Assembly: GCA_964016885.1 (NCBI GenBank)
Contig: OZ024756.1
Location: forward strand, 9,424,001 to 9,488,000
Direction of reading: 5' to 3'
Length of the DNA stretch: 64,000 nt
Origin: Eledone cirrhosa
Lineage: Eukaryota
Positions 18,735 to 61,782 of this stretch are shown here, in pieces. A program made the position numbers and the translations under genes. The notes under the pieces were generated by a model. The model did no database searches. It was not told where the DNA came from and worked only from the letters and a program-made list of their open reading frames with translations. The stretch's first letter is position 1. The number at the start of each line of letters is the position of its first letter.

Positions 18735-19380
18735 TTAACCCTTTAGCATTTACATTACTCTTGGTTTACTATTGTATTTTCACAGTAAAGGCTTTACCTC
18801 ACATAATATCTCACATAACATTTACATTACTCTATACATACTATTGTATTTTCACAGTAAAGGCTTTACCTCGCATAATATCTCACATAACATTTACATT
18901 ACTCTATATTTACTATTGTATTTTCACAGTAAAGGCTTTACCTCGCATAATATCTCACATAACATTTACATTACTCTATATTTACTATTGTATTTTCACA
19001 GTAAAGTCTTTACCTCACATAATATCTCACATAACATTTACATTACTCTATACATACTATTGTATTTTCACAGTAAAGTCTTTACCTCACATAATATCTT
19101 ACATAACATTTACATTACTCTATATATACTATTGTATTTTCACAGTAAAGGCTTTACCTCACATAATATCTCACATAGCATTTACATTACTCTAGATATA
19201 CTATTGTATTTTCACGGTAAACACTTTATTTCACATAATATCGAATCTTCGAGATTTTGATATTATTTATTTTAAGAACGATACCTTAACGTCAGTATGA
19301 GTTACAGCCGGTTGAGAGAATTCAGAAAGAGTTGAGAGAATTCTGGTCATATATGGCCTGTTTAAACGCTAAAGCGTTAA
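18735..19380 (+). mobile_element. Complete TTAA-flanked piggyBac-type MITE with 6 amplified 72-bp internal units
   Basis: TTAA at 18735-38 and 19377-80. The left terminus CCCTTTAGCATTTA matches the reverse complement of the right terminus (CGCTTTAGCGTTTA) at 12/14. The 72-bp units span 18757-19188. Confidence 0.85.
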
Positions 19381-42655: not shown

Positions 42656-45420
42656 ATATAAACCCACACTACATCAACAACCATATAGGTCCTTAATCTT
42701 TATATAAACCCACACTACATCAACCACCATACACGGCCCTTAATCTTTATATAAACCCACACTACATCAACAACCATATAGGTCCTTAATCTTTATATAA
42801 ACCCACACTATATCAACCACCATACACGATCCTTAATCTTTATATAAACCCACACTACATCAACTACCATACACGGCTCTTAATCTTTATATAAATCCAC
42901 ACTACATCAACTACCATACACGGCCCTTAATCTTTATATAAACCCACACTACATCAACCACCATACACGGCCCTTAATCTTTATATAAACCCACACTACA
43001 TCAACTACCATACACGGCCCTTAATCTTTATATAAACCCACACTACATCAACTACTATACACGGCCCTTAATCTTTATATAAACCCACACTACATCAACC
43101 ACCATACACGGCCCTTAATCTTTATATAAACCCACACTACATCAACAACCATATAGGTCCTTAATCTTTATATAAACCCACACTATATCAACCACCATAC
43201 ACGATCCTTAATCTTTATATAAACCCACACTACATCAACTACCATACACGGCCCTTAATCTTTATATAAACCCACACTACATCAACTACCATACACGGCC
43301 CTTAATCTTTATATAAACCCACACTACATCAACCACCATACACGGCCCTTAATCTTTATATAAACCGACACTACATCAACTACCATACTCGGCCCTTAAT
43401 CTTTATATAAACCCACACTACATCAACCAACATACACGGTCCTTAATCTTTATATAAACCCACACTACATCAACTACTATACACGGCCCTTAATCTTTAT
43501 ATAAACCCACACTACATCAACTACCATACACGGCCCTTAATCTTTATATAAACCCACACTACATCAACCAACATATAGGTCCTTAATCTTTATATAAACC
43601 GACACTGCATCAACCAACATACACGGCCCTTAATCTTTATATAAACCCACACTACGTCAACTACCATACAAGGCCCTTAACCTTTATATAAACCCACACT
43701 ACATCAACTACCATACACGGCCCTTAATCTTTATAGAAACCCACACTACATCAACCACCATACACGGCCCTTAATCTTTATATAAACCGACACTACATCA
43801 ACCAACATACAGCCCCTTAATCTTTATATAAACACACACTACATCAACTACCATACAACCCTTTAATTTTTATATAAACCCACACTACATCAACCAACAT
43901 ACACGGTCCTTAATCTTTATATAAACCCACACTACATCAACCAACATACAGCCCCTTAATCTTTATATAAACCCACACTACATCGACTACCATACACGGC
44001 CCTTAATCTTTATATAAACCCACACTACATCAACTACCATATACGGTCCTTAATCTTTATATAAACCCACACTACATCAACCAACATACACGGCCCTTAA
44101 TCTTTATATAAACCCACACTACATCAACTACCATACACTGCCCTTAATCTTTATATAAACCCACACTACATCAACTACCATACACGGCCCTTAATCTTTA
44201 TATAAACCCACACTACATCAACCACGATACACGGCCCTTAATCTTTATATAAACCCACACTACATCAACCACCATACAGCCCTTAATCTTTATATAAACC
44301 CACACTACATCAACCAACATACACGGCCCTTAATCTTTATATAAACCCACACTACATCAACCGACATACACGGCCCTTAATCTTTATATAAACCCACACT
44401 ACATCAACCACCATACACGGCCCTTAATCTTTATATAAACCCACACTACATCAACCACCATACACGGCCCTTAATCTTTATATAAACCCACACTACATCA
44501 ACCAACATACACGGCCCTTAATCTTTATATAAACCCACACTACATCAACCAACATACAGCCCCTTAATCTTTATATAAACCCACACTACATCAACCAACA
44601 TACAGCCCCTTAATCTTTATATAAACCCACACTACATCAACCAACATACACGGCCCTTAATCTTTATATAAACCCACACTACATCAACCACCATACACGG
44701 CCCTTAATCTTTATATAAACCCACACTACATCAACCACCATACACGGCCCTTAATCTTTATATAAACCCACACTACATCAACCAATATACACGGCCCTTA
44801 ATCTTTATATAAACCCACACTACATCAACCAACATACAGCCCCTTAATCTTTATATAAACCCACACTACATCAACCAACATACAGCCCCTTAATCTTTAT
44901 ATAAACCCACACTACATCAACCAACATACAGCCCCTTAATCTTTATATAAACCCACACTACATCAACCAACATACAGCCCCTTAATCTTTATATAAACCC
45001 ACACTACATCAACCACCATACACGGCCCTTAATCTTTATATAAACCCACACTACATCAACCAGCATACACGGCCCTTAATCTTTATATAAACCCACACTA
45101 CATCAACCAACATACAGCCCCTTAATCTTTATATAAACCCACACTACATCAACCAACATACAGCCCCTTAATCTTTATATAAACCCACACTACATCAACC
45201 AACATACAGCCCCTTAATCTTTATATAAACCCACACTACATCAACCAACATACAGCCCCTTAATCTTTATATAAACCCACACTACATCAACCAACATACA
45301 CGGCCCTTAATCTTTATATAAACCCACACTACATCAACCACCATACACGGCCCTTAATCTTTATATAAACCCACACTACATCAACCACCATACACGGCCC
45401 TTAATCTTTAATATAAACCT
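42656..45420. repeat. 47-bp minisatellite (45-46-bp variants), ~59 units
   Basis: Unit TATAAACCCACACTACATCAACCACCATACACGGCCCTTAATCTTTA. Confidence 0.95.
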
Positions 45421-45456
45421 GTGTGCTTCATAAAGAAATCATTATTAGTAGTATTG

Positions 45457-46125
45457 TATTGGATTAGCAGAATCGGTAGAGCGTCGGACAACATGCTTTG
45501 CGGCATAGAGTTATGTCTCTTTACGTTCTGAGTTCAAATCCCGCCGAGGTTAGCTTTGCCTTTCATCCTTACCGGGTCTATGAAATAAAGTACCAGTAAT
45601 GCACTGAGATCATTTAATCGACTTTTCCCTCCACCTCAAATTACTGGCCTTGTGCCTCAAGTAGAAACAATTATTATTATTATTATTGCTCTCTAAATGG
45701 CTGGGGATTATCAGTATTGGTAGAGGGTCGGACGCCATGCTTTGCAGCATAGAGTTACGGCCCTTTATGGTCTGAGTTCAAATCCCGCCGAGGTTAACTT
45801 TGCGTTTCCTCCTTACGGGGTCGATAAAATAAAATACCAGTCACGCACTGGGGTCGATTTAATCGACTTTCCCCTCCCCCAAAATTGCTGGCCTTGTGCC
45901 TATATAAGAAACCATTATTATTGCTCTCTAAGAGTGGATTGGCAGTATCGGTGGAGGGTCAGACGCCATGCTTTCTAGCATAGTTACGTCCCTTAACGAT
46001 CTGAGTTCAAATCCCGCCGAGGTTGACTTTGCCTTTTATCCTTACGGGGTCGATAAAATAAAGTACCAGTAATGCACTGGGTAATTGCTGGCCTTGTGCC
46101 TAAAGTAGAAACAATTATTGCTCTC
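45457..46125 (+). mobile_element. Three head-to-tail tRNA-derived SINEs with a Deu/Nin-type domain
   Basis: Each has GAGTTCAAATCCCGCCGAGG (B box), then TTTGCCTTTCATCCTTACGGGGTCGATAAAATAAAGTACCAG-like sequence, and a GGCCTTGTGCC..AGAAACAATTATT-like end. Confidence 0.85.
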
Positions 46126-46644
46126 TAAGAGTTAATCATTTCTCGTTTCACAGAATTTTTCTGTCCGAATTTAAAACAAAGACAAAAAAACAACAACAAA
46201 AAAATAAGAATAAAAAGAAAAACAGTTATTTCCTCTCTCTTAAATTTTCCATTTTCCCATTTCTTAATGAGGTGAAAACTGCTGACGTCTTATCACAAAC
46301 ATATCTACTTTTCACCGATAATTTACAGTTTCAGATGTGTTTAGTCTTAACGGACAATGTTAATGGTATATGGAGGCCCCACGAGACATTTATGACTAAT
46401 ACATGAAGGGCAAATAATGAAAGCAAAAGTCATCATAGGTTTAGAAACTAAAATGATAAAACCACTCCTTGTCACATTTTCTAAAGAAAGACTGTGTTTA
46501 AGTTTTTCAAATCCATTTTGAAAATAATGAAACATTTGAAGGGATTTAGTATTATAACGAACTTTCTTAGTATTTATATGGTGTTTGAAGTATAACTTAA
46601 CAAAGACATTTATCATGGGAAGTTTTTACACAAATATTTATATT

Positions 46645-47595
46645 TTAACCCTTTAGCATTAACATTACTCTATATTTACTATTGTATTTTCACAGTAAAG
46701 GCTTTACCTCACATAATATCTCACATAACATTTACATTACTCTATATATACTATTGTATTTTCACAGTAAAGGCTTTACTCCACATAATATCTCACATAA
46801 CATTTACATTACTCTATATATACTATTGTATTTTCACAGTAAAGGCTTAACCTCACATAATATCTCACATAACATTTACATTACTCTATATATACTATTG
46901 TATTTTCACAGTAAAGGCTTTACCTCACATAATATATCACATAACATTTACATTACTCTATATATACTATTATATTTTCACAGTAAAGTCTTTACCTCAC
47001 ATAATATCTCACATAACATTTACATTACTCTATATATACTATTGTATTTTCACAGTAAAGGCTTTACCTCACATAATATCTCACATAACATTTACATTAC
47101 TCTATATATACTATTGTATTTTCACAGTAAAGGCTTAACCTCACATAATATCTCAGATAACATTTACATTACTCTATATATACTATTGTATTTTCACAGT
47201 AAAGGCTTAACCTCACATAATATCTCACATAACATTTACATTACTCTATATATACTATTGTATTTTCACAGTAAAGGCTTTACCTCACATAATATCTCAC
47301 ATAACATTTACATTACTCAATATATACTATTGTATTTTCACAGTAAAGGCTTTACCCCACATAATATCTCACATAACATTTACATTACTCTATATATACT
47401 ATTGTATTTTCACAGTAAAGGCTTCACCTCACATAATATCTCACATAACATTTACATTACTCTATATATACTATTGTATTTTCACAGTAAAGGCTTTACC
47501 CCACATAATATCTCACATAACATTTACATTACTCTATATATACTATTGTATTTTCACAGTAAAGGTTTTACCTCACATAATATCTCACATAACAT
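46645..47595 (+). repeat. Left end of a piggyBac-type MITE (TTAA|CCCTTTAGCATT) followed by 13 units of the 72-bp satellite
   Basis: Unit ACTCTATATATACTATTGTATTTTCACAGTAAAGGCTTTACCTCACATAATATCTCACATAACATTTACATT. From 46667 to the insertion point is 13x72 minus 7 bp. Confidence 0.92.
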
Positions 47596-47806
47596 CTCGT
47601 ATACGAGAGACGTGTGTTGACGTGTGTGAACAAGCTCGGCTACCGAGTCGGATTTACTTACTCAAAAAGTGAGTTTTGATTAATTTTTTTATACTGTAAT
47701 ATACGTTAACCCCTTGCCTTGGTCGTCAAACTTTGAGTTTATTTATTTTCGCCCCTTTTTGGGGCGAATTTTCCAGTTAAAAATTTATTACGGCAAACTA
47801 ATAGAA

Positions 47807-49549
47807 ATGGACGGAATTTTCACATCTCATCCTAACGTGAAAGCCACGCCCCCTAAGAAAGGTGATACAGAGAAGCTAGAAGCACAAGGCTCTAAGTCTT
47901 CCCTCCTGACTTCTGCAAAAGAAACATGGAACACGGAATTAAAAGAAAAATTTGTAGAAATGGGTGAAAACCCAGAAAGTCACATAAACGCAGACAAAAA
48001 CATCAACGACAATAACAGCAATAGTCACAACACCAACCAAGGAAAAAATAACGATAACACCAAACAAAGTGAACCCACTACTGGTACCTCCTTTGCACAG
48101 GCGGTCCGGAAAACACAAACCTGCAAGCAACTGGACATTACAACTCTGAGAGAAAAGATGAAGGAAGCGAAACAGTATGTAACTTTCAAAGAAGGAGGAG
48201 ACTTCACAATCACCTCCCCACAAGAAATCAAAAGAGACACGACGCTAAGAACGATATCTTTCAGAACAATTTCCAACATAACAAGGAAACCAACTCAATT
48301 ATCCCAAAAAGAGATTGAGCTGGTCCTAAAAAATGTGTGGAGTGATATATCGTTCATACAAAAAGGGCCACTCTATGGGAATATAACGGTCCTAATGAAG
48401 GATCAATTGACGGCCAGGAAATACTCTGTGGCACCAATTGTTTCCAAGATATATACATTTTTCCCCACATATTTAGGGAAAAGAACGCAGAAGATAAGGG
48501 TCTCCGGAATCCGGCCAAATGCATGCATTTCCTGGGTACTAACAGGATTTTTAGAAGACGAGGACGGAATCCTCTCAGTAGGAGAAGTCACCACAGACGT
48601 TTTCGGCGGTTTGAGCGTGGAGGTTCTGGTCCAAATGAGACCAGAACGAATCGCTAGAATACCACAGAGGGTGTCCCTCGATGGAGAAACATTTATATAT
48701 ATTTCAGCCGAGGGTAGGAGGCCCATATGTTACTACTGTTCAAGCAGGGGTCATCTAAGGGCTGCTTGTCCTCAATTGACAAAAAAAAAGGCTCTTTTGC
48801 CTACACCCCACACACCACCACCGCCACCACCACCACCACCACCACCTCCACCACCACCACCACAACAACAACAAAAACAACAGGGAAAAATAACACAAGA
48901 CACGGCCCCACCCAAAACAACTCCCAAAACACACACAAATACAACAAAACCCCAAAATACACCACTACCCGACAGCACGGACGAGGACCCAGCGGAAACG
49001 GCACCTAGTGACGAAGAGGGGGAACCCTTCCAACCTGTAAAAAGGAAAAAAAGAAAGCACCACTCGAACATAAACGAAACAAACACACAACCACCAACAA
49101 AAACAAAACAAACAGAACAAACAAAATCCGCCCCACCCCAAAACATAACACATACAACAAAACGTAAGCACACACAAGAACAACAAACAAACACAACACA
49201 AATAAAACAGTATACATACATTAACACAAATAACAAAGAACTAGTAAAAACAATACACAAAGACCCTTTGGTGGAAACTGAAGGGCAATTCTTTGCAAGC
49301 GCGGCCAACAAACCGCATTTAAAAATGATAAGACTCCCAATGGACACCTATGCAAAACTAAGAGAGAACTTTCCTGAGGACGTGGGGAAAACATGTACTC
49401 GACCCTATAACCGCGTCCTCTTGAAACGTTTCCCCACCCACACCTCACCAAACACCCCCACTCCACCACAGAACAACACCCCACCAAACAACCCCTCCAA
49501 TACGCCCATGGATATTGTGCAACCTGCTCCTCAGGAGCCGAACAGGTAG
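47807..49549 (+). CDS. LINE ORF1 (gag-like nucleic-acid-binding protein), copy 1
   Basis: Open frame; first ATG at 47807 (MDGIFTS), while the track start at 47714 is a TTG. Contains a CX2CX4HX4C zinc knuckle (CYYCSSRGHLRAAC), then a Pro/Thr/Gln-rich tail with basic KRKKRK. Confidence 0.9.
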   Translation: MDGIFTSHPNVKATPPKKGDTEKLEAQGSKSSLLTSAKETWNTELKEKFVEMGENPESHINADKNINDNNSNSHNTNQGKNNDNTKQSEPTTGTSFAQAVRKTQTCKQLDITTLREKMKEAKQYVTFKEGGDFTITSPQEIKRDTTLRTISFRTISNITRKPTQLSQKEIELVLKNVWSDISFIQKGPLYGNITVLMKDQLTARKYSVAPIVSKIYTFFPTYLGKRTQKIRVSGIRPNACISWVLTGFLEDEDGILSVGEVTTDVFGGLSVEVLVQMRPERIARIPQRVSLDGETFIYISAEGRRPICYYCSSRGHLRAACPQLTKKKALLPTPHTPPPPPPPPPPPPPPPPQQQQKQQGKITQDTAPPKTTPKTHTNTTKPQNTPLPDSTDEDPAETAPSDEEGEPFQPVKRKKRKHHSNINETNTQPPTKTKQTEQTKSAPPQNITHTTKRKHTQEQQTNTTQIKQYTYINTNNKELVKTIHKDPLVETEGQFFASAANKPHLKMIRLPMDTYAKLRENFPEDVGKTCTRPYNRVLLKRFPTHTSPNTPTPPQNNTPPNNPSNTPMDIVQPAPQEPNR

Positions 49550-49570
49550 GTCCTTCCTCTTTTAACCAAC

Positions 49571-52500
49571 ATGGCTGATATAAGAGTTGGGTTTCTGAAT
49601 GTACGTGGCCTGGGACTGTCTTGGAAACAAGGCAAACTTTTAAACGATCTCAGGTCACATAGAATGGATGTAATGGCTATTTGCGAGTCCAGGATCAGCA
49701 GCGAGCACCAACTGGCGCCCCTCTTCGACGACTTTGAGATCTTCGCATCTCTCTGTCAACCGGGGGGTGGGGGTGGAGTTGTCGTTCTGCTGCGAAAACA
49801 CCTGGGCCTCGCCATACAGAAGGTGCACCTGGACCCGGAGGGTCGACTGGTGGTTTTAGACGTCGGCAGTAGTGAAAGTGGAGCCCTTAGACTAATAGCT
49901 GTGTACGCCCCTTTTTGGGCAGCGCGGCCGGAATACTTCCAACGTCTGGAAACTTTTCTGGGAACGTCCCGCTCCTTGCTTTTAGTGGGGGACTGGAATG
50001 GTATCCTGGATGCACGTTGGGACTATGTAGGGGCATGTGCCAATAGAGGGGGGTGTAAAAGCCTCAAAAGGTTAATCGGCCGATTTGACCTGGCCGATAG
50101 ATATCGACTAGATTTTCCGACTGTACCACTATGGACGTGGACCAATCGCAGTGGAACATCTAGGTCGTACCTAGATAGGGTCCTAGTTAGAGAGAACGAT
50201 AGGGACACATTTAGCTGTCCAAAAATGTTCATGGTTGACTATTCGGATCACAAGTTAGTGACCTGCATAGCCAACCTTGATAGAACCCATAGACAGGGAC
50301 CCGGTTACTGGAAGCTGAACTTGTCCTTACCGAGAAGCAAAGCTTACAGTAAACGGATTAGCACGTTAGTTAAGCAGAATTTGACAGGGGCAATTGTCAA
50401 CAACAGGTGGTGGAGCTCTCTTAAGAGAGCAATTAGAATAGAATCGATAGGTTTTAGTCAGGAATTAGCAAGGGATAGGAACAAGACGGAAAGGGAATTA
50501 GTAGATAGAGTAGAAGAGGCGATTAGGAGTGGCAATGTAGCCGGCGTGCTGGCATCAAGAATGGCCTTAGACCAGTTCTTTGAGGTGAAGCATGAAGGCT
50601 GCGTTGTCAGGAGTAAAATACGTGCTCTGGGTAATGAGGGAGCCAAAGCTGTAAGCTGGGCCCGAGTGACAGAGGCAAAAAGTGGGAACAAGTCCACGAT
50701 TCGGTCTTTGAAGGACCAGAATGGGCGTGTGATCCTTGAACCTGGGCAGATGTGTGCGGCCTTTCAGCGGCACTTTGCACGACTGTTCGAGAGGGGCGGC
50801 GCGCCGGGTGAGACTATGGATTTCAATCCATACCTCGACGGTCTGCCGCGCCTCTCGGACGCGGAGGCGAAGTCCTGCGAAAGGACGATTTCAGCTGCTG
50901 AGATAGGGGCGGCGCTGAGCCAATGCGGCAAACGCAAATCCCCGGGTCTCGATGGTCTACCATACGAGCTATATGTAGCGATGCCGGACTTGTTCTCCGA
51001 TATCCTCGAAGCGGTCTACTGCAACTGGCAGCAGAACGGGAGAATTCCCAGTTCTGTGACCAAGGGCGTAGTTACGCTGGTGAGGAAGGATGAGAACAAG
51101 GGGGATGACATAAGTAACTTCAGGCCCATAACTCTGCTAAATACAGAGTTAAAGATTTTGGCCAAGGTGTTAGCGAAGAGGTTGGCGCTTGTCGTTGGAA
51201 ACCTGGTGGGAGAAGCGCAGACATGCGCAATCCCGTCCAGGTCCATTCACGACAATCTCCACCTTATGCGATACATCATAGAGAGGGTAGGGAATGAACC
51301 CGGCTTTGGTGGGGCCCTGATCAACTTGGATCAATCTAAAGCTTTCGATAGGGTTGACCATCGTTACCTGGATGCGGTGCTCGCGGCGGCAGGCTTCGGA
51401 CCCGTTTTCAGGGGTTGGATTGCTGCGATGCACAGCAGCAACGTCTGCTCAAGGGTCAAGGTGAACGGCCACCTCTCGGAGCCGTTCCAAATCATGCGAT
51501 CCATCCGACAGGGATGCCCTCTCTCCTCCCTACTGTATGTGCTGGCTCTTGAGCCACTACTGCGGAAGTTGGAGCGGTTGCAGGGCATCCCTTTGGAACC
51601 GGGATTGCAGAAAGCGGCGTCGGCCTACGCCGATGACGTGACAGTAATGGTGTCGAAAACCTCGCAAATCGGTGAGATCGGCACCTTACTGGAGGAATAT
51701 GAAAGGTTTACAGGAGCCAAGCTGAACCGGGACAAGTCCGTCGGTTTGCAACTCGGAACATGGAGAGGCAAACCGATGCCCTCCAACGACGTCGTCGGAC
51801 GCTGGACGGAGGGCCCGGTGAAGCTGCTTGGGGTCTGGTTCGGACCAGACCTCCAGGTGGAGAAAAACTGGAACGAGGTAACGGCCAGGGTGTTTGCACT
51901 CACCCAGAAGTGGGCCCAGTGCAAACTATCCCTGAAAGGTCGAGCGGAGGTGGCGAATACTTATATAGCATCCGTCATCTACTACCGCTTGACCGTCGTG
52001 CCTTGCCCAGTGAAAAGACTCGCCAAAATGGAGTGCGCGCTGTTCCAATTTCTTTGGAACAAGCGGACCCCTTTGGTGAGGAGATCCATCTGCTGTCAAC
52101 ACCCTTCGAAAGGAGGGCTGGGGATGCCGTGGCTACAGATGCGTAAACACGCATTAAGGCTACGGCACCTCCAGGTATTCCTCACCGGTCAACCGGTGTG
52201 GGCCCCGTTTGTGAGGCGAGCCTTTCCCAGACTCGTCTCGCTCACCGAGCTGCAATCCTGGGTCAAGCAAAGACCGAGAAAAGTGGGCGACTGGCACATT
52301 GAATGTGCCCAGGCGCTCACGGCCCTCTGGAAAGCGGACCCGGCAATCAGTGGAGACTCCACCTCGACATTCTATAGAGGGTTGGTACGCAGCAGGTGCG
52401 ACGATGCTCTCGGAGAAGCTCTAGGCATGGAGGAAGATGAACTGGCCAGTCTGTTCGGTAGGACGTTTGGCCCTGGACCGATGGACAACTTCCAAAAGTC

Positions 52501-53008
52501 CCTGGCTTGGCAGTGCTACCGAGGGGCTCTACCCGTTCGAGACAAGCTCCACAGGCATGGGAGCCTGGGTAGAGATCCTTTGAATAAGATCTGTCCGAGA
52601 TGCGTGCATGATGACGAAACCGTTGCGCACGCATTCGTACACTGCCCAGGCATTGCTGACCTGTGGGGCTATGTGGAACGACTACTGTCGAGGGTGGGAC
52701 CAATCTGGTTGACCACCGAGTCCATTGTCACGATCAAACCGCCTCCCCCTTTCAAAAACGAAGGAGAGGCGGTTTTTCTCTGTGTGGTAGCCATGGCTAA
52801 AGAAGTTGTATGGTGGACGAGGCTGAAAGGGCTGAGGTCAGACACCTTTCTCTCCGGCCAACAACTGGTCCCCTTTTTCAAATACCATTTTAAAAGAAGG
52901 ATCAGAATGGAGAGAGAGGTGCTCTACCCCAGCAAGTTTTATGAAAGGTGGGTGAAAGTAGGGAGAATGGCCAGAGTGAATGGGTCTTCTCTCTATATCA
53001 GCCTGTAG
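49571..53008 (+). CDS. LINE ORF2: APE endonuclease, reverse transcriptase and C-terminal zinc motif, copy 1 (1145 aa)
   Basis: APE motifs GFLNVRGL, ICESR, VGDWN, SYLDRV, YSDH. RT motifs SPGLDG, FRPITLLN, DQSKAFD, RQGCPLS, YADD. C-terminal CPRC..HAFVHC. GPGYWKLN and GGLG motifs are typical of L1/Tx1. Confidence 0.97.
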   Translation: MADIRVGFLNVRGLGLSWKQGKLLNDLRSHRMDVMAICESRISSEHQLAPLFDDFEIFASLCQPGGGGGVVVLLRKHLGLAIQKVHLDPEGRLVVLDVGSSESGALRLIAVYAPFWAARPEYFQRLETFLGTSRSLLLVGDWNGILDARWDYVGACANRGGCKSLKRLIGRFDLADRYRLDFPTVPLWTWTNRSGTSRSYLDRVLVRENDRDTFSCPKMFMVDYSDHKLVTCIANLDRTHRQGPGYWKLNLSLPRSKAYSKRISTLVKQNLTGAIVNNRWWSSLKRAIRIESIGFSQELARDRNKTERELVDRVEEAIRSGNVAGVLASRMALDQFFEVKHEGCVVRSKIRALGNEGAKAVSWARVTEAKSGNKSTIRSLKDQNGRVILEPGQMCAAFQRHFARLFERGGAPGETMDFNPYLDGLPRLSDAEAKSCERTISAAEIGAALSQCGKRKSPGLDGLPYELYVAMPDLFSDILEAVYCNWQQNGRIPSSVTKGVVTLVRKDENKGDDISNFRPITLLNTELKILAKVLAKRLALVVGNLVGEAQTCAIPSRSIHDNLHLMRYIIERVGNEPGFGGALINLDQSKAFDRVDHRYLDAVLAAAGFGPVFRGWIAAMHSSNVCSRVKVNGHLSEPFQIMRSIRQGCPLSSLLYVLALEPLLRKLERLQGIPLEPGLQKAASAYADDVTVMVSKTSQIGEIGTLLEEYERFTGAKLNRDKSVGLQLGTWRGKPMPSNDVVGRWTEGPVKLLGVWFGPDLQVEKNWNEVTARVFALTQKWAQCKLSLKGRAEVANTYIASVIYYRLTVVPCPVKRLAKMECALFQFLWNKRTPLVRRSICCQHPSKGGLGMPWLQMRKHALRLRHLQVFLTGQPVWAPFVRRAFPRLVSLTELQSWVKQRPRKVGDWHIECAQALTALWKADPAISGDSTSTFYRGLVRSRCDDALGEALGMEEDELASLFGRTFGPGPMDNFQKSLAWQCYRGALPVRDKLHRHGSLGRDPLNKICPRCVHDDETVAHAFVHCPGIADLWGYVERLLSRVGPIWLTTESIVTIKPPPPFKNEGEAVFLCVVAMAKEVVWWTRLKGLRSDTFLSGQQLVPFFKYHFKRRIRMEREVLYPSKFYERWVKVGRMARVNGSSLYISL

Positions 53009-53245
53009 GTGAAAGAAGAGGAAAAAGCGGAGACGAGGGAAGCACCTACTCTTTGTGCTCCTGAGGAGAAGGGTTACACATTTTTTCCGGGGTGTGTGCG
53101 ACCCATGTTAATGCCCCCTCCCTATTGAGGACTTCGTTTGTTGTTGTTATTTCATTGTTATATTTTTGTACTCGTTAATTATATGTAAACTTCCCCCCTT
53201 GTATCTGTCCCTACCTTTTGTGCCCTAGTGGCAAATAAAGAAACC

Positions 53246-53742
53246 ACTCTATATATACTATTGTATTTTCACAGTAAAGGCTTTACCTCACATAATATCT
53301 CAGATAACATTTACATTACTCTATATATACTATTGTATTTTCACAGTAAAGGCTTTACCTCACATAATACCTCACATAACATTTACATTACTCTATATAT
53401 ACTATTGTATTTTCACAGTAAAGGCTTTACCTCACATAATATCTCACATAACATTTACATTACTCTATATATACTATTGTATTTTCACAGTAAAGGCTTT
53501 ACCTCACATAATATCTCACATAACATTTACATTACTCTATATATACTATTGTATTTTCACAGTAAAGGCTTTACCTCACATAATACCTCACATAACATTT
53601 ACATTACTCTATATATACTATTGTATTTTCACAGTAAAGGCTTTACCTCACATAATATCTCACATAACATTTACATTACTCTATATATACCATTGTATTT
53701 TCACAGTAAAGGCTTTACCTCACATAATATCTCACATAACAT
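53246..53742 (+). repeat. 72-bp satellite, 7 units minus 7 bp, between the two LINEs
   Basis: 497 bp = 7x72-7; same unit as 46667-47595. Confidence 0.95.
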
Positions 53743-53953
53743 TTCGTATACGAGAGACGTGTGTTGACGTGTGTGAACAAGCTCGGCTACCGAGTCGGAT
53801 TTGCTTACTCAAAAAGTGAGTTTTGATTAATTTTTTTATACTGTAATATACGTTAACCCCTTGCCTTGGTCGTCAAACTTTGAGTTTATTTATTTTCGCC
53901 CCTTTTTGGAGCGAATTTTCCAGTTAAAAATTTATTACGGCAAACTAATAGAA

Positions 53954-55696
53954 ATGGACGGAATTTTCACATCTCATCCTAACGTGAAAGCCACGCCCCC
54001 TAAGAAAGGTGATACAGAGAAGCTAGAAGCACAAGGCTCTAAGTCTTCCCTCCTGACTTCTGCAAAAGAAACATGGAACACGGAATTAAAAGAAAAATTT
54101 GTAAAAATGGGTGAAAACCCAGAAAGTCACATAAACGCAGACAAAAACAACAACGACAATAACAGCAATAGTCACAACACCAACCAAGGAAAAAATAACG
54201 ATAACACCAAACAAAGCGAACCCACTACTGGTGCCTCCTTTGCACAGGCGGTCCGGAAAACACAAACCTGCAAGCAACTGGACATTACAACTCTGAGAGA
54301 AAAGATGAAGGAAGCGAAACAGTATGTAACTTTCAAAGAAGGAGGAGACTTCACAATCACCTCCCCACAAGAAATCAAAAGAGACACGACGCTAAGAACG
54401 ATATCTTTCAGAACAATTTCCAACATAACAAGGAAACCAACTCAATTATCCCAAAAAGAGATTGAGCTGGTCCTAAAAAATGTGTGGAGTGATATATCGT
54501 TCATACAAAAAGGGCCACTCTATGGGAATATAACGGTCCTAATGAAGGATCAATTGACGGCCAGGAAATACTCTGTGGCACCAATTGTTTCCAAGCTACA
54601 TACATTTTTCCCCACATATTTAGGGAAAAGAACGCAGAAGATAAGGGTCTCCGGAATCCGGCCAAATGCATGCATTTCCTGGGTACTAACAGGATTTTTA
54701 GAAGACGAGGACGGAATCCTCTCAGTAGGAGAAGTCACCACAGACGTTTTCGGCGGTTTGAGCGTGGAGGTTCTGGTCCAAATGAGACCAGAACGAATAG
54801 CTAGAATACCACAGAGGGTGTCCCTCGATGGAGAAACATTTATATATATTTCAGCCGAGGGTAGGAGGCCCATATGTTACTACTGTTCAAGCAGGGGTCA
54901 TCTAAGGGCTGCTTGTCCTCAATTGACAAAAAAAAAGGCTCTTTTGCCTACACCCCACACACCACCACCGCCACCACCACCACCACCACCACCTCCACCA
55001 CCACCACCACAACAACAACAAAAGCAACACGGAAAAATAACACAAGACACGGCCCCACCCAAAACAACTCCCAAAACACACACAAATACAACAAAACCCC
55101 AAAATACACCACTACCCGACAGCACGGACGAGGACCCAGCGGAAACGGCACCTAGTGACGAAGAGGGGGAACCCTTCCAACCTGTAAAAAGGAAAAAAAG
55201 AAAGCACCACTCGAACATAAACGAAACAAACACACAACCACCAACAAAAACAAAACAAACAGAACAAACAAAATCCGCCCCACCCCAAAACATAACACAT
55301 ACAACAAAACGTAAGCACACACAAGAACAACAAACAAACACAACACAAATAAAACAGTATACATACATTAACACAAATAACAAAGAACTAGTAAAAACAA
55401 TACACAAAGACCCTTTGGTGGAAACTGAAGGGCAATTCTTTGCAAGCGCGGCCAACAAACCGCATTTAAAAATGATAAGACTCACAATGGACACCTATGC
55501 AAAACTAAGAGAGAACTTTCCTGAGGACGTGGGGAAAACATGTACTCGACCCTATAACCGCGTCCTCTTGAAACGTTTCCCCACCCACACCTCACCAAAC
55601 ACCCCCACTCCACCACAGAACAACACCCCACCAAACAACCCCTCCAATACGCCCATGGATATTGTGCAACCTGCTCCTCAGGAGCCGAACAGGTAG
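53954..55696 (+). CDS. LINE ORF1, copy 2
   Basis: Same protein as copy 1 apart from a few substitutions; zinc knuckle intact. Confidence 0.9.
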   Translation: MDGIFTSHPNVKATPPKKGDTEKLEAQGSKSSLLTSAKETWNTELKEKFVKMGENPESHINADKNNNDNNSNSHNTNQGKNNDNTKQSEPTTGASFAQAVRKTQTCKQLDITTLREKMKEAKQYVTFKEGGDFTITSPQEIKRDTTLRTISFRTISNITRKPTQLSQKEIELVLKNVWSDISFIQKGPLYGNITVLMKDQLTARKYSVAPIVSKLHTFFPTYLGKRTQKIRVSGIRPNACISWVLTGFLEDEDGILSVGEVTTDVFGGLSVEVLVQMRPERIARIPQRVSLDGETFIYISAEGRRPICYYCSSRGHLRAACPQLTKKKALLPTPHTPPPPPPPPPPPPPPPPQQQQKQHGKITQDTAPPKTTPKTHTNTTKPQNTPLPDSTDEDPAETAPSDEEGEPFQPVKRKKRKHHSNINETNTQPPTKTKQTEQTKSAPPQNITHTTKRKHTQEQQTNTTQIKQYTYINTNNKELVKTIHKDPLVETEGQFFASAANKPHLKMIRLTMDTYAKLRENFPEDVGKTCTRPYNRVLLKRFPTHTSPNTPTPPQNNTPPNNPSNTPMDIVQPAPQEPNR

Positions 55697-55717
55697 GTCC
55701 TTCCTCTTTTAACCAAC

Positions 55718-58700
55718 ATGGCTGATATAAGAGTTGGGTTTCTGAATGTACGTGGCCTGGGACTGTCTTGGAAACAAGGCAAACTTTTAAACGATCTCAG
55801 GTCACATAGAATGGATGTAATGGCTATTTGCGAGTCCAGGATCAGCAGCGAGCACCAACTGGCGCCCCTCTTCGACGACTTTGAGATCTTCGCATCTCTC
55901 TGTCAACCGGGGGGTGGGGGTGGAGTTGTCGTTCTGCTGCGAAAACACCTGGGCCTCGCCATACAGAAGGTGCACCTGGACCCGGAGGGTCGACTGGTGG
56001 TTTTAGACGTCGGCAGTAGTGAAAGTGGAGCCCTTAGACTAATAGCTGTGTACGCCCCTTTATGGGCAGCGCGGCCGGAATACTTCCAACGTCTGGAAAC
56101 TTTTCTGGGAACGTCCCGCTCCTTGCTTTTAGTGGGGGACTGGAATGGTATCCTGGATGCACGTTGGGACTATGTAGGGGCATGTGCCAATAGAGGGGGG
56201 TGTAAAAGCCTCAAAAGGTTAATCGGCCGATTTGACCTGGCCGATAGATATCGACTAGATTTTCCGACTGTACCACTATGGACGTGGACCAATCGCAGTG
56301 GAACATCTAGGTCGTACCTAGATAGGGTCCTAGTTAGAGAGAACGATAGGGACACATTTAGCTGTCCAAAAATGTTCATGGTTGACTATTCGGATCACAA
56401 GTTAGTGACCTGCATAGCCAACCTTGATAGAACCCATAGACAGGGACCCGGTTACTGGAAGCTGAACTTGTCCTTACCGAGAAGCAAAGCTTACAGTAAA
56501 CGGATTAGCACGTTAGTTAAGCAGAATTTGACAGGGGCAATTGTCAACAACAGGTGGTGGAGCTCTCTTAAGAGAGCAATTAGAATAGAATCGATAGGTT
56601 TTAGTCAGGAATTAGCAAGGGATAGGAACAAGACGGAAAGGGAATTAGTAGATAGAGTAGAAGAGGCGATTAGGAGTGGCAATGTAGCCGGCGTGCTGGC
56701 ATCAAGAATGGCCTTAGACCAGTTCTTTGAGGTGAAGCATGAAGGCTGCGTTGTCAGGAGTAAAATACGTGCTCTGGGTAATGAGGGAGCCAAAGCTGTG
56801 AGCTGGGCCCGAGTGACAGAGGCAAAAAGTGGGAACAAGTCCACGATTCGGTCTTTGAAGGACCAGGATGGGCGTGTGATCCTTGAACCTGGGCAGATGT
56901 GTGCGGCCTTTCAGCGGCACTTTGCACGACTGTTCGAGAGGGGCGGCGCGCCGGGTGAGACTATGGACTTCAATCCATACCTCGACGGTCTGCCGCGCCT
57001 CTCGGACGCGGAGGCGAAGTCCTGCGAAAGGACGATTTCAGCTGCTGAGATAGGGGCGGCGCTGAGCCAATGCGGCAAACGCAAATCCCCGGGTCTCGAT
57101 GGTCTACCATACGAGCTATATGTAGCGATGCCGGACTTGTTCTCCGATATCCTCGAAGCGGTCTACTGCAACTGGCAGCAGAACGGGAGAATTCCCAGTT
57201 CTGTGACCAAGGGCGTAGTTACGCTGCTGAGGAAGGATGAGAACAAGGGGGATGACATAAGTAACTTCAGGCCCATAACTCTGCTAAATACAGAGTTAAA
57301 GATTTTGGCCAAGGTGTTAGCGAAGAGGTTGGCGCTTGTCGTTGGAAACCTGGTGGGAGAAGCGCAGACATGCGCAATCCCGTCCAGGTCCATTCACGAC
57401 AATCTCCACCTTATGCGATACATCATAGAGAGGGTAGGGAATGAACCCGGCTTTGGTGGGGCCCTGATCAACTTGGATCAATCTAAAGCTTTCGATAGGG
57501 TTGACCATCGTTACCTGGATGCGGTGCTCGCGGCGGCAGGCTTCGGACCCGTTTTCAGGGGTTGGATTGCTGCGATGCACAGCAGCAACGTCTGCTCAAG
57601 GGTCAAGGTGAACGGCCACCTCTCGGAGCCGTTCCAAATCATGCGATCCATCCGACAGGGATGCCCTCTCTCCTCCCTACTGTATGTGCTGGCTCTTGAG
57701 CCACTACTGCGGAAGTTGGAGCGGTTGCAGGGCATCCCTTTGGAACCGGGATTGCAGAAAGCGGCGTCGGCCTACGCCGATGACGTGACAGTAATGGTGT
57801 CGAAAACCTCGCAAATCGGTGAGATCGGCACCTTACTGGAGGAATATGAAAGGTTTACAGGAGCCAAGCTGAACCGGGACAAGTCCGTCGGTTTGCAACT
57901 CGGAACATGGAGAGGCAAACCGATGCCCTCCAACGACGTCGTCGGACGCTGGACGGAGGGCCCGGTGAAGCTGCTTGGGGTCTGGTTCGGACCAGACCTC
58001 CAGGTGGAGAAAAACTGGAACGAGGTAACGGCCAGGGTGTTTGCACTCACCCAGAAGTGGGCCCAGTGCAAACTATCCCTGAAAGGTCGAGCGGAGGTGG
58101 CGAATACTTATATAGCATCCGTCATCTACTACCGCTTGACCGTCGTGCCTTGCCCAGTGAAAAGACTCGCCAAAATGGAGTGCGCGCTGTTCCAATTTCT
58201 TTGGAACAAGCGGACCCCTTTGGTGAGGAGATCCATCTGCTGTCAACACCCTTCGAAAGGAGGGCTGGGGATGCCGTGGCTACAGATGCGTAAACACGCA
58301 TTAAGGCTACGGCACCTCCAGGTATTCCTCACCGGTCAACCGGTGTGGGCCCCGTTTGTGAGGCGAGCCTTTCCCAGACTCGTCTCGCTCACCGAGCTGC
58401 AATCCTGGGTCAAGCAAAGACCGAGAAAAGTGGGCGACTGGCACATTGAATGTGCCCAGGCGCTCACGGCCCTCTGGAAAGCGGACACGGCAATCAGTGG
58501 AGACTCCACGTCGACATTCTATAGAGGGTTGGTACGCAGCAGGTGCGACGATGCTCTCGGAGAAGCTCTAGGCATGGAGGAAGATGAACTGGCCAGTCTG
58601 TTCGGTAGGACGTTTGGCCCTGGACCGATGGACAACTTCCAAAAGTCCCTGGCTTGGCAGTGCTACCGAGGGGCTCTACCCGTTCGAGACAAGCTCCACA

Positions 58701-59155
58701 GGCATGGGAGCCTGGGTAGAGATCCTTTGAATAAGATCTGTCCGAGATGCGTGCATGATGACGAAACCGTTGCGCACGCATTCGTACACTGCCCAGGCAT
58801 TGCTGACCTGTGGGGCTATGTGGAACGACTACTGTCGAGGGTGGGACCAATCCGGTTGACCACCGAGTCCATTGTCACGATCAAACCGCCTCCCCCTTTC
58901 AAAAACGAAGGAGAGGCGGTTTTTCTCTGTGTGGTAGCCATGGCTAAAGAAGTTGTATGGTGGACGAGGCTGAAAGGGCTGAGGTCAGACACCTTTCTCT
59001 CCGGCCAACAACTGGTCCCCTTTTTCAAATACCATTTTAAAAGAAGGATCAGAATGGAGAGAGAGGTGCTCTACCCCAGTAAGTTTTATGAAAGGTGGTT
59101 GAAAGTAGGGAGAATGGCCAGAGTGAATGGGTCTTCTCTCTATATCAGCCTGTAG
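55718..59155 (+). CDS. LINE ORF2 (APE+RT), copy 2
   Basis: 1145 aa, intact; 6 aa differences from copy 1 in the provided translations. Confidence 0.97.
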   Translation: MADIRVGFLNVRGLGLSWKQGKLLNDLRSHRMDVMAICESRISSEHQLAPLFDDFEIFASLCQPGGGGGVVVLLRKHLGLAIQKVHLDPEGRLVVLDVGSSESGALRLIAVYAPLWAARPEYFQRLETFLGTSRSLLLVGDWNGILDARWDYVGACANRGGCKSLKRLIGRFDLADRYRLDFPTVPLWTWTNRSGTSRSYLDRVLVRENDRDTFSCPKMFMVDYSDHKLVTCIANLDRTHRQGPGYWKLNLSLPRSKAYSKRISTLVKQNLTGAIVNNRWWSSLKRAIRIESIGFSQELARDRNKTERELVDRVEEAIRSGNVAGVLASRMALDQFFEVKHEGCVVRSKIRALGNEGAKAVSWARVTEAKSGNKSTIRSLKDQDGRVILEPGQMCAAFQRHFARLFERGGAPGETMDFNPYLDGLPRLSDAEAKSCERTISAAEIGAALSQCGKRKSPGLDGLPYELYVAMPDLFSDILEAVYCNWQQNGRIPSSVTKGVVTLLRKDENKGDDISNFRPITLLNTELKILAKVLAKRLALVVGNLVGEAQTCAIPSRSIHDNLHLMRYIIERVGNEPGFGGALINLDQSKAFDRVDHRYLDAVLAAAGFGPVFRGWIAAMHSSNVCSRVKVNGHLSEPFQIMRSIRQGCPLSSLLYVLALEPLLRKLERLQGIPLEPGLQKAASAYADDVTVMVSKTSQIGEIGTLLEEYERFTGAKLNRDKSVGLQLGTWRGKPMPSNDVVGRWTEGPVKLLGVWFGPDLQVEKNWNEVTARVFALTQKWAQCKLSLKGRAEVANTYIASVIYYRLTVVPCPVKRLAKMECALFQFLWNKRTPLVRRSICCQHPSKGGLGMPWLQMRKHALRLRHLQVFLTGQPVWAPFVRRAFPRLVSLTELQSWVKQRPRKVGDWHIECAQALTALWKADTAISGDSTSTFYRGLVRSRCDDALGEALGMEEDELASLFGRTFGPGPMDNFQKSLAWQCYRGALPVRDKLHRHGSLGRDPLNKICPRCVHDDETVAHAFVHCPGIADLWGYVERLLSRVGPIRLTTESIVTIKPPPPFKNEGEAVFLCVVAMAKEVVWWTRLKGLRSDTFLSGQQLVPFFKYHFKRRIRMEREVLYPSKFYERWLKVGRMARVNGSSLYISL

Positions 59156-59392
59156 GTGAAAGAAGAGGAAAAAGAGGAGACGAGGGAAGCACCTACTCTT
59201 TGTGCTCCTGAGGAGAAGGGTTACACATTTTTTCCGGGGTGTGTGCGACCCATGTTAATGCCCCCTCCCTATTGAGGACTTCGTTTGTTGTTGTTATTTC
59301 ATTGTTATATTTTTGTACTCGTTAATTATATGTAAACTTCCCCCCTTGTATCTGTCCCTACCTTTTGTGCCCTAGTGGCAAATAAAGAAACC

Positions 59393-59440
59393 ACTCTATA
59401 TATACCATTGTATTTTCACAGCTACGGCTTTACCTCACAC
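59393..59440 (+). repeat. Partial 72-bp satellite unit after LINE copy 2
   Basis: ACTCTATATATACCATTGTATTTTCACAG..GGCTTTACCTCACA, after which the sequence degenerates. Confidence 0.85.
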
Positions 59441-60780
59441 TAACCACACACCCTACTACCACCACTAACCCTCACACACACATCCCCCCCTCCTCCCACC
59501 ACCCTACAACTGATACCACTAACATCTCCCCGACCCCACGTACACGAACACACACACCCAGCCACACCCACTTGCACCACCCACTCTACACACCCTACCA
59601 CCACTGACCCCCACTAACACACCCGCATTCAACCCTTTCCCCACCACCAGTATACTAACACCCATTAATATCCCCTTCACCACACACACACTCATCCAAA
59701 CACGCACACACACACCAGTACACTACACACCCTCCATCGCCCCCACACCTTTCTCTCCCTCTCCCCGCTCCTCCCATACCCCTTCACACATACACACACA
59801 TCCCACTAACACCTCTACTAATACACCCCCTCCCCCGAACGACCCCCTCCCCACTCCACCTTTCACACCTACCCATCCTCTCCCCTGTCCACCGCACCTC
59901 CGCACACACTGACACACCTACTTTCTCCACCTGCCATTCTCCCCTACTGCTGCTATGCCCTGACTCTCTGACCACCTCTCCGCACACACAGACACATAGC
60001 CCTCTCCACCTGTCCTTCTCCTCTACCCTCCTCCTGCCTTGACCCTCTGACCACTTCCTGTTGCGCGCGCACCCCACATCTCCCCTCTTCCGACCAACCC
60101 AACCACGGATTACACACATTGGACATCGCTCCCACGAATCAACTCCATCACAAGGAAAATATCCGGCACCCACCACATCCCCTACGGAACTACCTTAGGA
60201 ACTTACCCACGGACATACACTCATAAAAATTTGTTTTCCCACACGCCACCTACATCCACAATACGTATAAACACCACACACACGTGCGTACCCCCACATA
60301 TTTACACACTCAGCCTCCGGAATCCTCTCCCCCACCCCTCTGACCCCTCCCCATCCACACACGCACACACGCACACCGACCTACACCCCACCCCACACAC
60401 CTTTTCCTGAACATGGAACCTCGTTCTTCCCCTAACTCTCACATTCACATACACACACACACACACACGTACACCTACACACACACACACACACCACCTT
60501 CAGCCCTCCCCGCTCGGACACCCCGCCTCCCTCTCCCCACTCAACCCGCCACCACCCCTACACGCCCCACACCCTTCCACCACTTGTTTATCTTCATCTT
60601 TATTTTTATTTTTATTTTTTTTAAATATTTATTTTCATTTGTACCGCTTCCACCGTTTCCTCTCACCCCTTTTTTCTAAATGTCTCTCCCCCACTCCCCT
60701 ACACACCCTTGGAATTATCTTCACACACACTTTTCGCCTGAAGAAGGGCTTATGCCAGAAACGTCCCCCCCACTCTCAAG
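59440..60780. other. C/A-rich non-periodic low-complexity tract, possibly low-quality consensus
   Basis: Abrupt compositional switch in the middle of a satellite unit; strongly G-depleted. Confidence 0.5.
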
Positions 60781-60844
60781 AGCGTGAAACTAATAAACCT
60801 TTGTTCGTACTGCCTCTCTGTTTTGTTCCCGTTCCATTTTTCAC

Positions 60845-60881
<37 letters not shown>

Positions 60882-61072: not shown

Positions 61073-61778
61073 GCTGTAATTTATGAAGCTGTGGTCACTT
61101 CCAACCGACCAAACCAACCACAGGAGGTCAAATCCTATGTGTGCATGGTGGAGGGCCGTTTAAGGACGTTTCCTGAACCATCAGTCGACCTTTAGGTACC
61201 CGGATAGACCTTCATCCACGAAACTCGCGAGCCACGTATGGTCCCTCAAGGACTCAAGTATAGACTACTCCATTCAATGGAAAGCCATCACTAAGTCCAA
61301 GCCATACGCAAGGGGAAATCCGTCGTGTGGACTATGTATTGACGAACGAATAAATATTCTAAAGAAATTATGCAATAGTGATTGCCTAAACACGAGTAAT
61401 GAATTTTTCACACGTTGTCCACACGTCTCGAAACACCTATTGCATAACTACAAAGCTCCGGATTGAATGAATTATTGTAACAACATCAATATTTTTTCTC
61501 ATCAACTAAAAACTTTTCGGACTTTCGCAGTTATCTCCCTTACACCTTTCGCACGCATTTTAGTATTGCCTGTGTGAAGTGACTGGTTTCTGCGCATGCG
61601 CGTTCGTACGGTTGTCCTTCCTGTTCCGCATAACCATGCCCATTACGAGCTGAGGATCCGCTAAGGTGAAACAATTGTTCTCGGTATGGTGAACTAACTG
61701 TTGTGTAACCACTTCTACCTAACTCGTCCCATGGACTGAGTGCTCTACCACTACGGATATTACCTTCCAGTGTTCTAC

Positions 61779-61782
<4 letters not shown>
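61073..61782 (+). mobile_element. 3' fragment of a second Naiad-like Penelope family (GIY-YIG + 3'UTR), absent from the ORF track
   Basis: AVIYEAVVT..KSYVCM, frameshifts, then RFLNHQSTF..TKLASHVWSLKD..IQWKAI..PYARG..CGLCIDERINIL..LN..NEFFTRCPH, stop at 61464-66. Ends in (TA)n. Confidence 0.85.
61646..61683 (+). ncRNA. Minimal hammerhead motif downstream of a GIY-YIG fragment
   Basis: CGAG CTGAGGA TCCGCTAAGGT GAAAC AATT GTT CTCG; palindromic AACAATTGTT. Confidence 0.7.

Follow-up and report, generated by a model that had tools for sequence, protein, structure and literature searches.

A young LINE family of the octopod Eledone cirrhosa occupies one fixed site in the tandem repeat of a piggyBac-type MITE

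Two intact copies of a long interspersed nuclear element (LINE) interrupt, on the same strand and at the same position of the unit, a 72-bp tandem repeat within a miniature inverted-repeat transposable element (MITE) of the octopod Eledone cirrhosa. How did both come to lie there? The locus is part of a 64,000-nt stretch of contig OZ024756.1 (assembly GCA_964016885.1, positions 9,424,001 to 9,488,000), hereafter called the window; coordinates given below are positions in it, on the forward strand. A first-pass annotation of the window had proposed that the LINE targets the satellite and that it may also move together with the MITE, as a Tx1C-like composite. The targeting of the MITE satellite stood, while composite movement did not; a 5' leader, an excess of full-length copies and a sister family on (ATT)n, all described below, had not been remarked. 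We found that the copies of this young LINE family lie almost exclusively at a single fixed base of the 72-bp repeat, in a MITE that is older and abundant, and that they likely arose by many separate targeted insertions.

In the window, both LINEs split the unit between ..CATAACAT and ACTCTATA.., and unit positions 66-72 (7 bases) are missing. The two same-strand insertions at one unit position are thus real, with a loss of 7 bp that had escaped notice. A single extra base, C, lies at 47596 between the first array and LINE 1; the base ahead of LINE 2 (53743) is a T, and it is a C in all 71 copies with a 5' end examined elsewhere. The copies differ at 23 of 5,649 bases, and both open reading frames (ORFs) are open in each. 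Short-read contigs of two runs spanned the 5' junction with 0 substitutions; since these runs may stem from the source sample, this argues against an assembly artefact only. The further satellite reported after LINE 2 turned out to be only ~45 bp of a unit followed by an unrelated dispersed repeat, and the right end of the MITE was not found in the ~19.5 kb beyond LINE 2.

We then tabulated the 3' flanks of the LINE genome-wide, as had been suggested with the annotation. Directly after 254 of 260 LINE 3' ends, defined by an exact match to the last 23 bases and hence with older decayed copies outside the sample, we found the first 8 bases of the unit (ACTCTATA); reversed-pattern controls gave 0. 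We further sampled 80 loci among the first 100 of the 260 listed 3' ends, leaving out 12 tandem neighbours or already sampled loci, the two copies of the window and the last six listed. The first 15 bases of the unit were matched within 2 mismatches at 80/80 loci. Three of the six exceptions to the 8-base rule fall in the first 100, and all 3 still match the unit with at most 2 mismatches. Separate sets of 30 loci and of 30 5' ends, both overlapping the 80-locus sample, agree with these results. According to parts of Kojima 2015 (PMC4494074), a LINE counts as target-specific when over 20% of its flanks share a target; with one target in 254 of 260 flanks, the present family far exceeds this. 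The idea of a sequence-specific LINE that uses the tandem repeat of a MITE as a multicopy target was therefore borne out.

The target element is a piggyBac-type MITE, as had been proposed: it has TTAA on both sides, terminal inverted repeats of 14 bp that start with CCC, no ORF and many copies (10,681 exact left ends genome-wide). Among 50 copies examined, most were ~200-225 bp long with a single unit; the right end was in range in 35, and TTAA followed directly in 32 of these. The MITE also has an autonomous partner with matching ends, since a piggyBac with near-identical ends on both sides was present in 20 of 30 PF13843 loci examined. This element measures 2,567 bp (3 copies measured) and keeps an open 561-aa transposase frame in several copies. 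On contig C1, tandem arrays were present in 8/30 MITE copies examined within the initial 31 Mb and in 0/20 at 40-53 Mb. We counted 33,583 exact matches to the empty array junction genome-wide, and these more than 33,000 empty sites, together with intact LINE copies, suggest a candidate targeted-insertion tool for octopods.

Several further features of the arrays were recorded. Their units measure 72 bp or 60 bp, with the same junction, in unrelated MITE shells (L294-L309 and LINE-bearing loci); some arrays consist of locus-private units and many of a shared, consensus-like unit, and the last unit drifts back to old MITE sequence. Import of whole arrays by the LINE machinery was considered and is unsupported for arrays of locus-private units (L303, L305, L306). 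On the largest two contigs (C1, C2), LINE copies and MITE arrays are located within the distal ~30 Mb, and none of the listed LINE 3' ends falls in C1 31-431 Mb, though 31-53 Mb has many single-unit MITEs. As many as six LINE copies share an array, some of them one 65-nt unit apart (C1:4.22-4.26 Mb, C10:40.72-40.75 Mb and C10:41.41-41.42 Mb). Another element, starting with TACTAACAG or CACTAGCAG, breaks the unit in L017:1600-2200, L021:1600-2050 and L170, twice at the same position, 15 bases beyond the LINE 3' end; from its appearance it may be Helitron/Helentron-like. At L146, a MITE copy is broken by a ~900-bp element that by eye resembles a Tc1/mariner fragment. Copies of the autonomous piggyBac include L192-L200, L202 and L203, and a second piggyBac family with different ends is represented by L201, L204, L206, L208, L213 and L217.

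The 5' side of the insertions was equally uniform. The LINE 5' end was kept in 71 of the 80 loci, some of them with internal deletions, and in 71/71 junctions unit position 65 and a C are followed by the LINE, positions 66-72 being lost as a 7-bp target deletion. Full-length, base-precise copies make up ~89% of the sample. Positions 43-65 of the touching unit are perfect in 70/71 copies, the remaining one having a small variant, as compared to 552/960 (57.5%) other units of the same loci (Fisher p 4e-15; the boundary 43-65 was read off the same data). Variants common to the two neighbouring units were kept by the upstream touching unit at 13/15 sites up to position 28 and at 0/5 sites from position 41 on, in a comparison of 4 loci with non-independent sites. 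At L073, the first unit of the MITE and both neighbouring units vary at 41 and 46; the touching unit has the consensus there and retains local variants at 17-28. Truncated copies carry short duplications instead, of 2, 6, 2 and 3 nt (L093, L100, L130, L139), 9 nt (L024), ~10 nt (L121) and ~16 nt (L118), and they also occur at targets with variants in positions 43-65 or without these positions. A search for additional very short copies gave none beyond the 4 already in the sample.

These junctions suggest that the LINE RNA likely begins with ~23-25 bases of target sequence, through which the cDNA would anneal to the unit before it and prime second-strand synthesis. The leader is predicted to pair with the first ~34 bases of the element, the outer stem beginning at the first base of the leader (z -2.2 to -2.6; 5 and 2 of 200 shuffles fold equally well). 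No Rfam ribozyme, and no other relevant Rfam family, matched 45400-54000 at E up to 5, a search that diverged folds can escape. A perfect 14-bp palindrome spans the leader/element junction (47595-47608), and more hairpins are predicted in the 5' untranslated region.

We consider it probable, taking all parts of the scenario together, that the MITE spread long before the LINE and acts as a landing pad and not as a carrier, and that the LINE inserts one copy at a time by targeted target-primed reverse transcription, a target-derived 5' RNA leader finishing full-length insertions precisely. In a first step, the apurinic/apyrimidinic endonuclease (APE) domain would nick the bottom strand at ..TTACATT^ACTCTATA.., and the reverse transcriptase (RT) would start at the last base of the element; both points are suggested by the fixed 3' junction. 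Because there is no poly(A) in the DNA, the RNA may continue into the unit for a few bases, which would pair with the primer. If copying stopped early, the top strand would be joined 2-16 bases downstream of the nick, leaving a short duplication. If copying were complete, the cDNA would end in ~23-25 bases identical to unit positions ~41/43-65. By annealing to the unit just upstream, these bases would replace its local variants, remove positions 66-72 and serve as the primer for the second strand. For these two outcomes the junctions are observed, and the events leading to them are those that we would expect from the junctions. With an annealing leader, one would expect a preference for full-length copies and, as targets, for tandem arrays rather than single-unit MITEs. 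The layout of a single-unit MITE on both sides was found for 0/71 full-length copies, many distances being out of range.

Some observations weigh against this scenario, in addition to the reading of the 43-65 boundary from the same data and to the four loci with non-independent sites on which the overwrite comparison relies. Among the 10 non-full-length copies, L088 has a junction of the full-length type, L135 has a 41-nt microhomology junction, and the 5' end of L128 bears an unrelated repeat; the duplication of L118 contains one mismatch. The 'rearrangement' insertions of R1A, with a duplication plus a leader, were not seen among the 71 junctions. In the window, a private variant at position 14 occurs in the units on either side of LINE 2, a pattern also expected from a long duplication. 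When loci are compared, however, the pair of flanking units shows no greater likeness than other neighbouring units, and a long (~42-bp) target duplication was rejected for full-length copies, as flanks were identical over 9-42 in only 10/51 pairs, like ordinary neighbours. Finally, the middle units of LINE-bearing arrays are 5.2% apart between loci and the units of 11 LINE-free arrays 7.2% apart, compared to 16% for single-unit MITEs, with the LINE-bearing sample possibly leaning to consensus-like arrays and the LINE-free sample partly chosen by exact motif. Because array units are more alike, sequence exchange between arrays is likely, and it could move some of the LINEs.

A broader reading, in which the LINE would depend on the satellite at both ends of its RNA and would help to maintain it, seems unlikely to us as a whole. 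The hairpin between the leader and the first ~34 bases might then mark an RNA-processing step, and the AATAAA of the element might direct cleavage inside the downstream unit. Nicks made by the LINE might drive growth and homogenisation of the arrays in distal chromosome regions, the LINE building its own landing pads, and the switch from (ATT)n to the satellite might have required few endonuclease changes plus the capture of a leader.

The alternative that survives best does without any RNA leader. A protein would cut the top strand 7 bases upstream and would demand perfect positions 43-65 for full-length copies. Such strict recognition would likewise account for the constant loss of 7 bp and for the lack of variation in the upstream segment, which is a further point against a leader, and the downstream bases 1-8 are conserved as well. 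However, truncated copies reached targets that vary at 61-62 or lack the segment altogether (L118, L130, L139, L093, L121), and the touching unit of L073 is consensus at 41/46 amid units that vary there, while keeping its local variants at 17-28. This explanation is, in our opinion, likewise unlikely.

Still less probable is a spread at the DNA level, in which recombination between arrays (ectopic gene conversion, perhaps set off by nicks that the element makes) would have multiplied a small number of targeted insertions. Conversion would account for the identical junctions and for the excess of full-length copies, and it fits with the greater likeness of array units (5.2%/7.2%, as against 16% for single-unit MITEs) and with the tandem LINE runs on C1 and C10. 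The co-converted flanks would nevertheless have to end, at nearly every locus, no more than 8 bases beyond the 3' end and ~25 bases ahead of the 5' end; local array variants resume 9 bases past the LINE 3' end (L010, L014). In addition, LINE copies without any substitution between them have different adjacent units (L081, L124 and L137, on contigs C2, C15 and C18), and truncated copies with short duplications show retrotransposition reaching the target site.

Movement of MITE and LINE as one piggyBac unit, the Tx1C-like hitchhiking of the first-pass annotation, is very unlikely. In its favour, the genome has an autonomous piggyBac whose ends match those of the MITE and whose 561-aa transposase frame is open, and several composites retain both MITE ends. 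A mobile composite should, however, show a shared history of LINE and MITE. Whereas the LINEs are on average only 1.06% apart over 70 near-complete copies, with some pairs on different contigs lacking any substitution, the MITE right ends are 16.3% apart at 33 loci, and the two distances are uncorrelated (Mantel rho -0.21, p 0.92). For instance, the LINEs of L137 and L138 are 0.04% apart and their MITE tails 20.6% apart. The numbers of units upstream and downstream vary by locus, as do the numbers and types of units around the youngest copies, and at the locus of the window the right MITE end is lost. Composite movement is thus largely refuted as the main route, although rare moves are possible.

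A chance insertion duplicated by unequal crossover, which had been named as the finding that would overturn targeting, or a pair created by the assembly, has a negligible probability: the copies do share 99.6% of their bases and lie 6,147 bp from each other in one tandem array, but the same site is used by 254/260 copies genome-wide and LINE 1 differs by 0.05% from copies on other contigs, as compared to 0.4% from LINE 2, which speaks against any local duplication. Since copy 1 belongs to the youngest group of copies and copy 2 lies outside it, the pair in the window reflects two events.

We next considered the LINE itself. The architecture of ORF2, with an N-terminal APE (aa ~10-227), a central RT (YADD at 686-689) and a C-terminal zinc finger (1008-1025), identifies it from its sequence as a member of the L1 group of non-LTR (long terminal repeat) retrotransposons. 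The Pfam matches of ORF2 are PF03372, PF00078 and PF13966 only, with no RNase H or restriction-enzyme-like (REL) domain, and its catalytic motifs are intact. Its best match in the PDB, where few clades are represented, is human L1 ORF2p (E 2e-53, aa 5-857), and R2 gives E 3e-23. In the Tx1 clade, ORF1 carries a CCHC zinc knuckle rather than the domains of vertebrate L1 ORF1. The ORF1 of LINE 1 contains a knuckle of the form CX2CX4HX4C, which Pfam zf-CCHC matches below its cut-off (E 0.007), and no other Pfam family was detected in ORF1 at E 0.1.

The closest named relative of ORF2 is a protein of the octopod Argonauta hians, 64% identical over 44% of the length. In a tree made by a quick method, with one short row dropped and no labelled Tx1 references included, ORF2 grouped with this protein, the (ATT)n sister and P0001 (support 100), apart from plant L1s. 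Protein searches gave no labelled Tx1 sequence. In parts of PMC10294476, Tx1 is the only clade of the L1 superfamily named for bivalves, and molluscs, including Octopus, are reported to have many L1-Tx1 elements with recent activity (parts of PMC10294476, PMC8967140 and PMC13282606). Given the architecture, the targeting and this commonness, the LINE likely belongs to the Tx1 clade. LINE 1 has no poly(A) tail and carries AATAAA at 53234-53239; the 3' end of the LINE does not fold beyond its shuffles. Genome-wide, we counted 322 exact 5' ends, and both ORFs were open in 24 of 73 copies. A signature of A-to-I editing was looked for in the copies and was not found (private A>G 56 versus T>C 61 per 1,000 sites).

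A search with a related protein revealed a sister family of ~6.1 kb, whose ORF2 is 69% identical (APE 62%, RT 77%) and whose 3' end is likewise tailless. Among the 39 of its 110 matches examined, (ATT)n adjoined 35/37 recognised 3' ends and 32/32 recognised 5' ends. Because the nick contexts of the two families share ATT^A, a small change in specificity may separate them. Two young sister families with different targets in one genome thus offer a natural pair for mapping the specificity of the APE. Copies of the sister family (L255-L293, on many contigs) are often in tandem, and many have an open ORF2; L280 represents a further sister subfamily with ~80% DNA identity and the same (ATT)n target.

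The closest known system is that of Xenopus laevis. Its LINE Tx1L uses a site in the internal tandem repeats of the element Tx1D, and insertion creates a duplication of ~23 bp. Here we found a 7-bp deletion and an invariant upstream leader instead, and an ORF2 of 1,145 aa. Tx1L, as well as Tx2L, is an APE-type LINE found at a specific sequence in a non-autonomous piggyBac family (parts of PMC4494074 and PMC1950540). The octopod LINE similarly occupies a specific site in a non-autonomous piggyBac element, in a different host and in a MITE of only ~220 bp, mostly with one unit. The hairpin loop of its endonuclease aligns with the loop length of L1, whereas the loop of Tx1L is longer. The shared choice of a piggyBac-type element is likely convergent, and this would make it the second case after Xenopus of a LINE with such a non-autonomous element as its landing pad. 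In crocodilians, the Tx1 families Tx1-Mar and Tx1-9_AMi prefer DNA transposons (Mariner-N4_AMi and Harbingers), and hitchhiking of the associated SINEU-3 was rejected on the basis of truncated copies (parts of PMC4494074). Those cases are described as preferences and concern old insertions, whereas the octopod family is young (1%), base-precise and located in a tandem repeat. The microsatellite-specific Tx1-clade elements Kibi and Koshi (parts of PMC4494074) resemble the (ATT)n sister, but they are fish elements on (TC)n and (TTC)n. The likeness of the octopod system to Tx1L in Tx1D and to Tx1-Mar also draws on parts of PMC6719617 and PMC3747384.

The junction itself is more reminiscent of R1A and R2. 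According to parts of PMC2718515, full-length R1A elements of the Drosophila melanogaster type have lost precisely 9 bp of the target and carry as many as ~27 bases of upstream target sequence, and truncated copies bear duplications. R2 RNAs with up to 36 target bases lead to uniform junctions, through ribozyme cleavage upstream of the element (parts of PMC3774820). The uniform full-length junction with a target deletion, and the short duplications of truncated copies, are in good agreement with both. Unlike these elements, which belong to other clades and target 28S ribosomal DNA, the octopod LINE is of the L1 group and inserts into a transposon-derived satellite, with neither an Rfam ribozyme match nor an R1A-type rearranged junction. 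It thus represents a new form of a known type of system (Xenopus Tx1L/Tx1D, crocodilian Tx1-Mar) with an R1A-like junction. An L1-group element with this junction logic makes second-strand priming in APE-type LINEs directly testable, and if the leader reading is true, the family would be a natural system for precise gene insertion. In the literature searched, whose scope excluded most subscription papers, Repbase, Dfam and the supplement of PMC4494074, we found no description of this LINE family or of a target specificity of cephalopod LINEs.

The features of the locus are listed in Table 1.

Table 1. Positions of the LINE copies, the MITE and adjoining repeats in the window.
Feature	Position	Strand	Remark
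TTAA target-site copy at the MITE left end	46645..46648	+	seen in the sequence
Left end of the piggyBac-type MITE	46649..46666	+	14-bp inverted repeat running into the end of a 72-bp unit
Array 1	46667..47595	+	12 full 72-bp units + 65 nt
Putative target-derived 5' leader of LINE 1	47573..47596	+	unit positions 43-65 + one C
LINE copy 1	47597..53245	+	5,649 bp; member of the youngest copy group
ORF1 of LINE 1	47807..49549	+	580 aa; CCHC zinc knuckle at aa 308-321
ORF2 of LINE 1	49571..53008	+	1,145 aa; APE, RT, C-terminal zinc finger
Array 2	53246..53742	+	6 full units + 65 nt
Putative leader segment of LINE 2	53720..53742	+	
LINE copy 2	53744..59392	+	5,649 bp; insertion likely independent of copy 1
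ORF1 of LINE 2	53954..55696	+	open
ORF2 of LINE 2	55718..59155	+	open
Partial unit, 3' flank of LINE 2	59393..59440	+	
Unrelated dispersed-repeat piece	59434..60864		in place of the MITE right end
LINE-free copy of the same MITE	18735..19380	+	7 units; left and right ends present and flanked by TTAA; control for an empty target

The dispersed repeat that takes the place of the MITE right end (~59434-60864) has 2,758 candidate matches in the genome and is 87-94% identical to 7 other loci. It is C/A-rich, and its join to the unit lies in a short sequence common to both. Near 60730-60810, its end is presumably Penelope-like, judging from its appearance, and 61080-61780 may be a second fragment of this kind. 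Other tandem arrays of the window lie at 2069-3457 (49 bp), 17025-18094 (45 bp), 42656-45419 (47 bp) and 45461-46081 (244 bp); the 45-bp and 244-bp units seem to resemble derivatives of SINE-like (short interspersed nuclear element-like) repeats. Short ORFs at 4941-5462 (+) and 31075-31659 (-) resemble, by eye, RT fragments of other retroelements.

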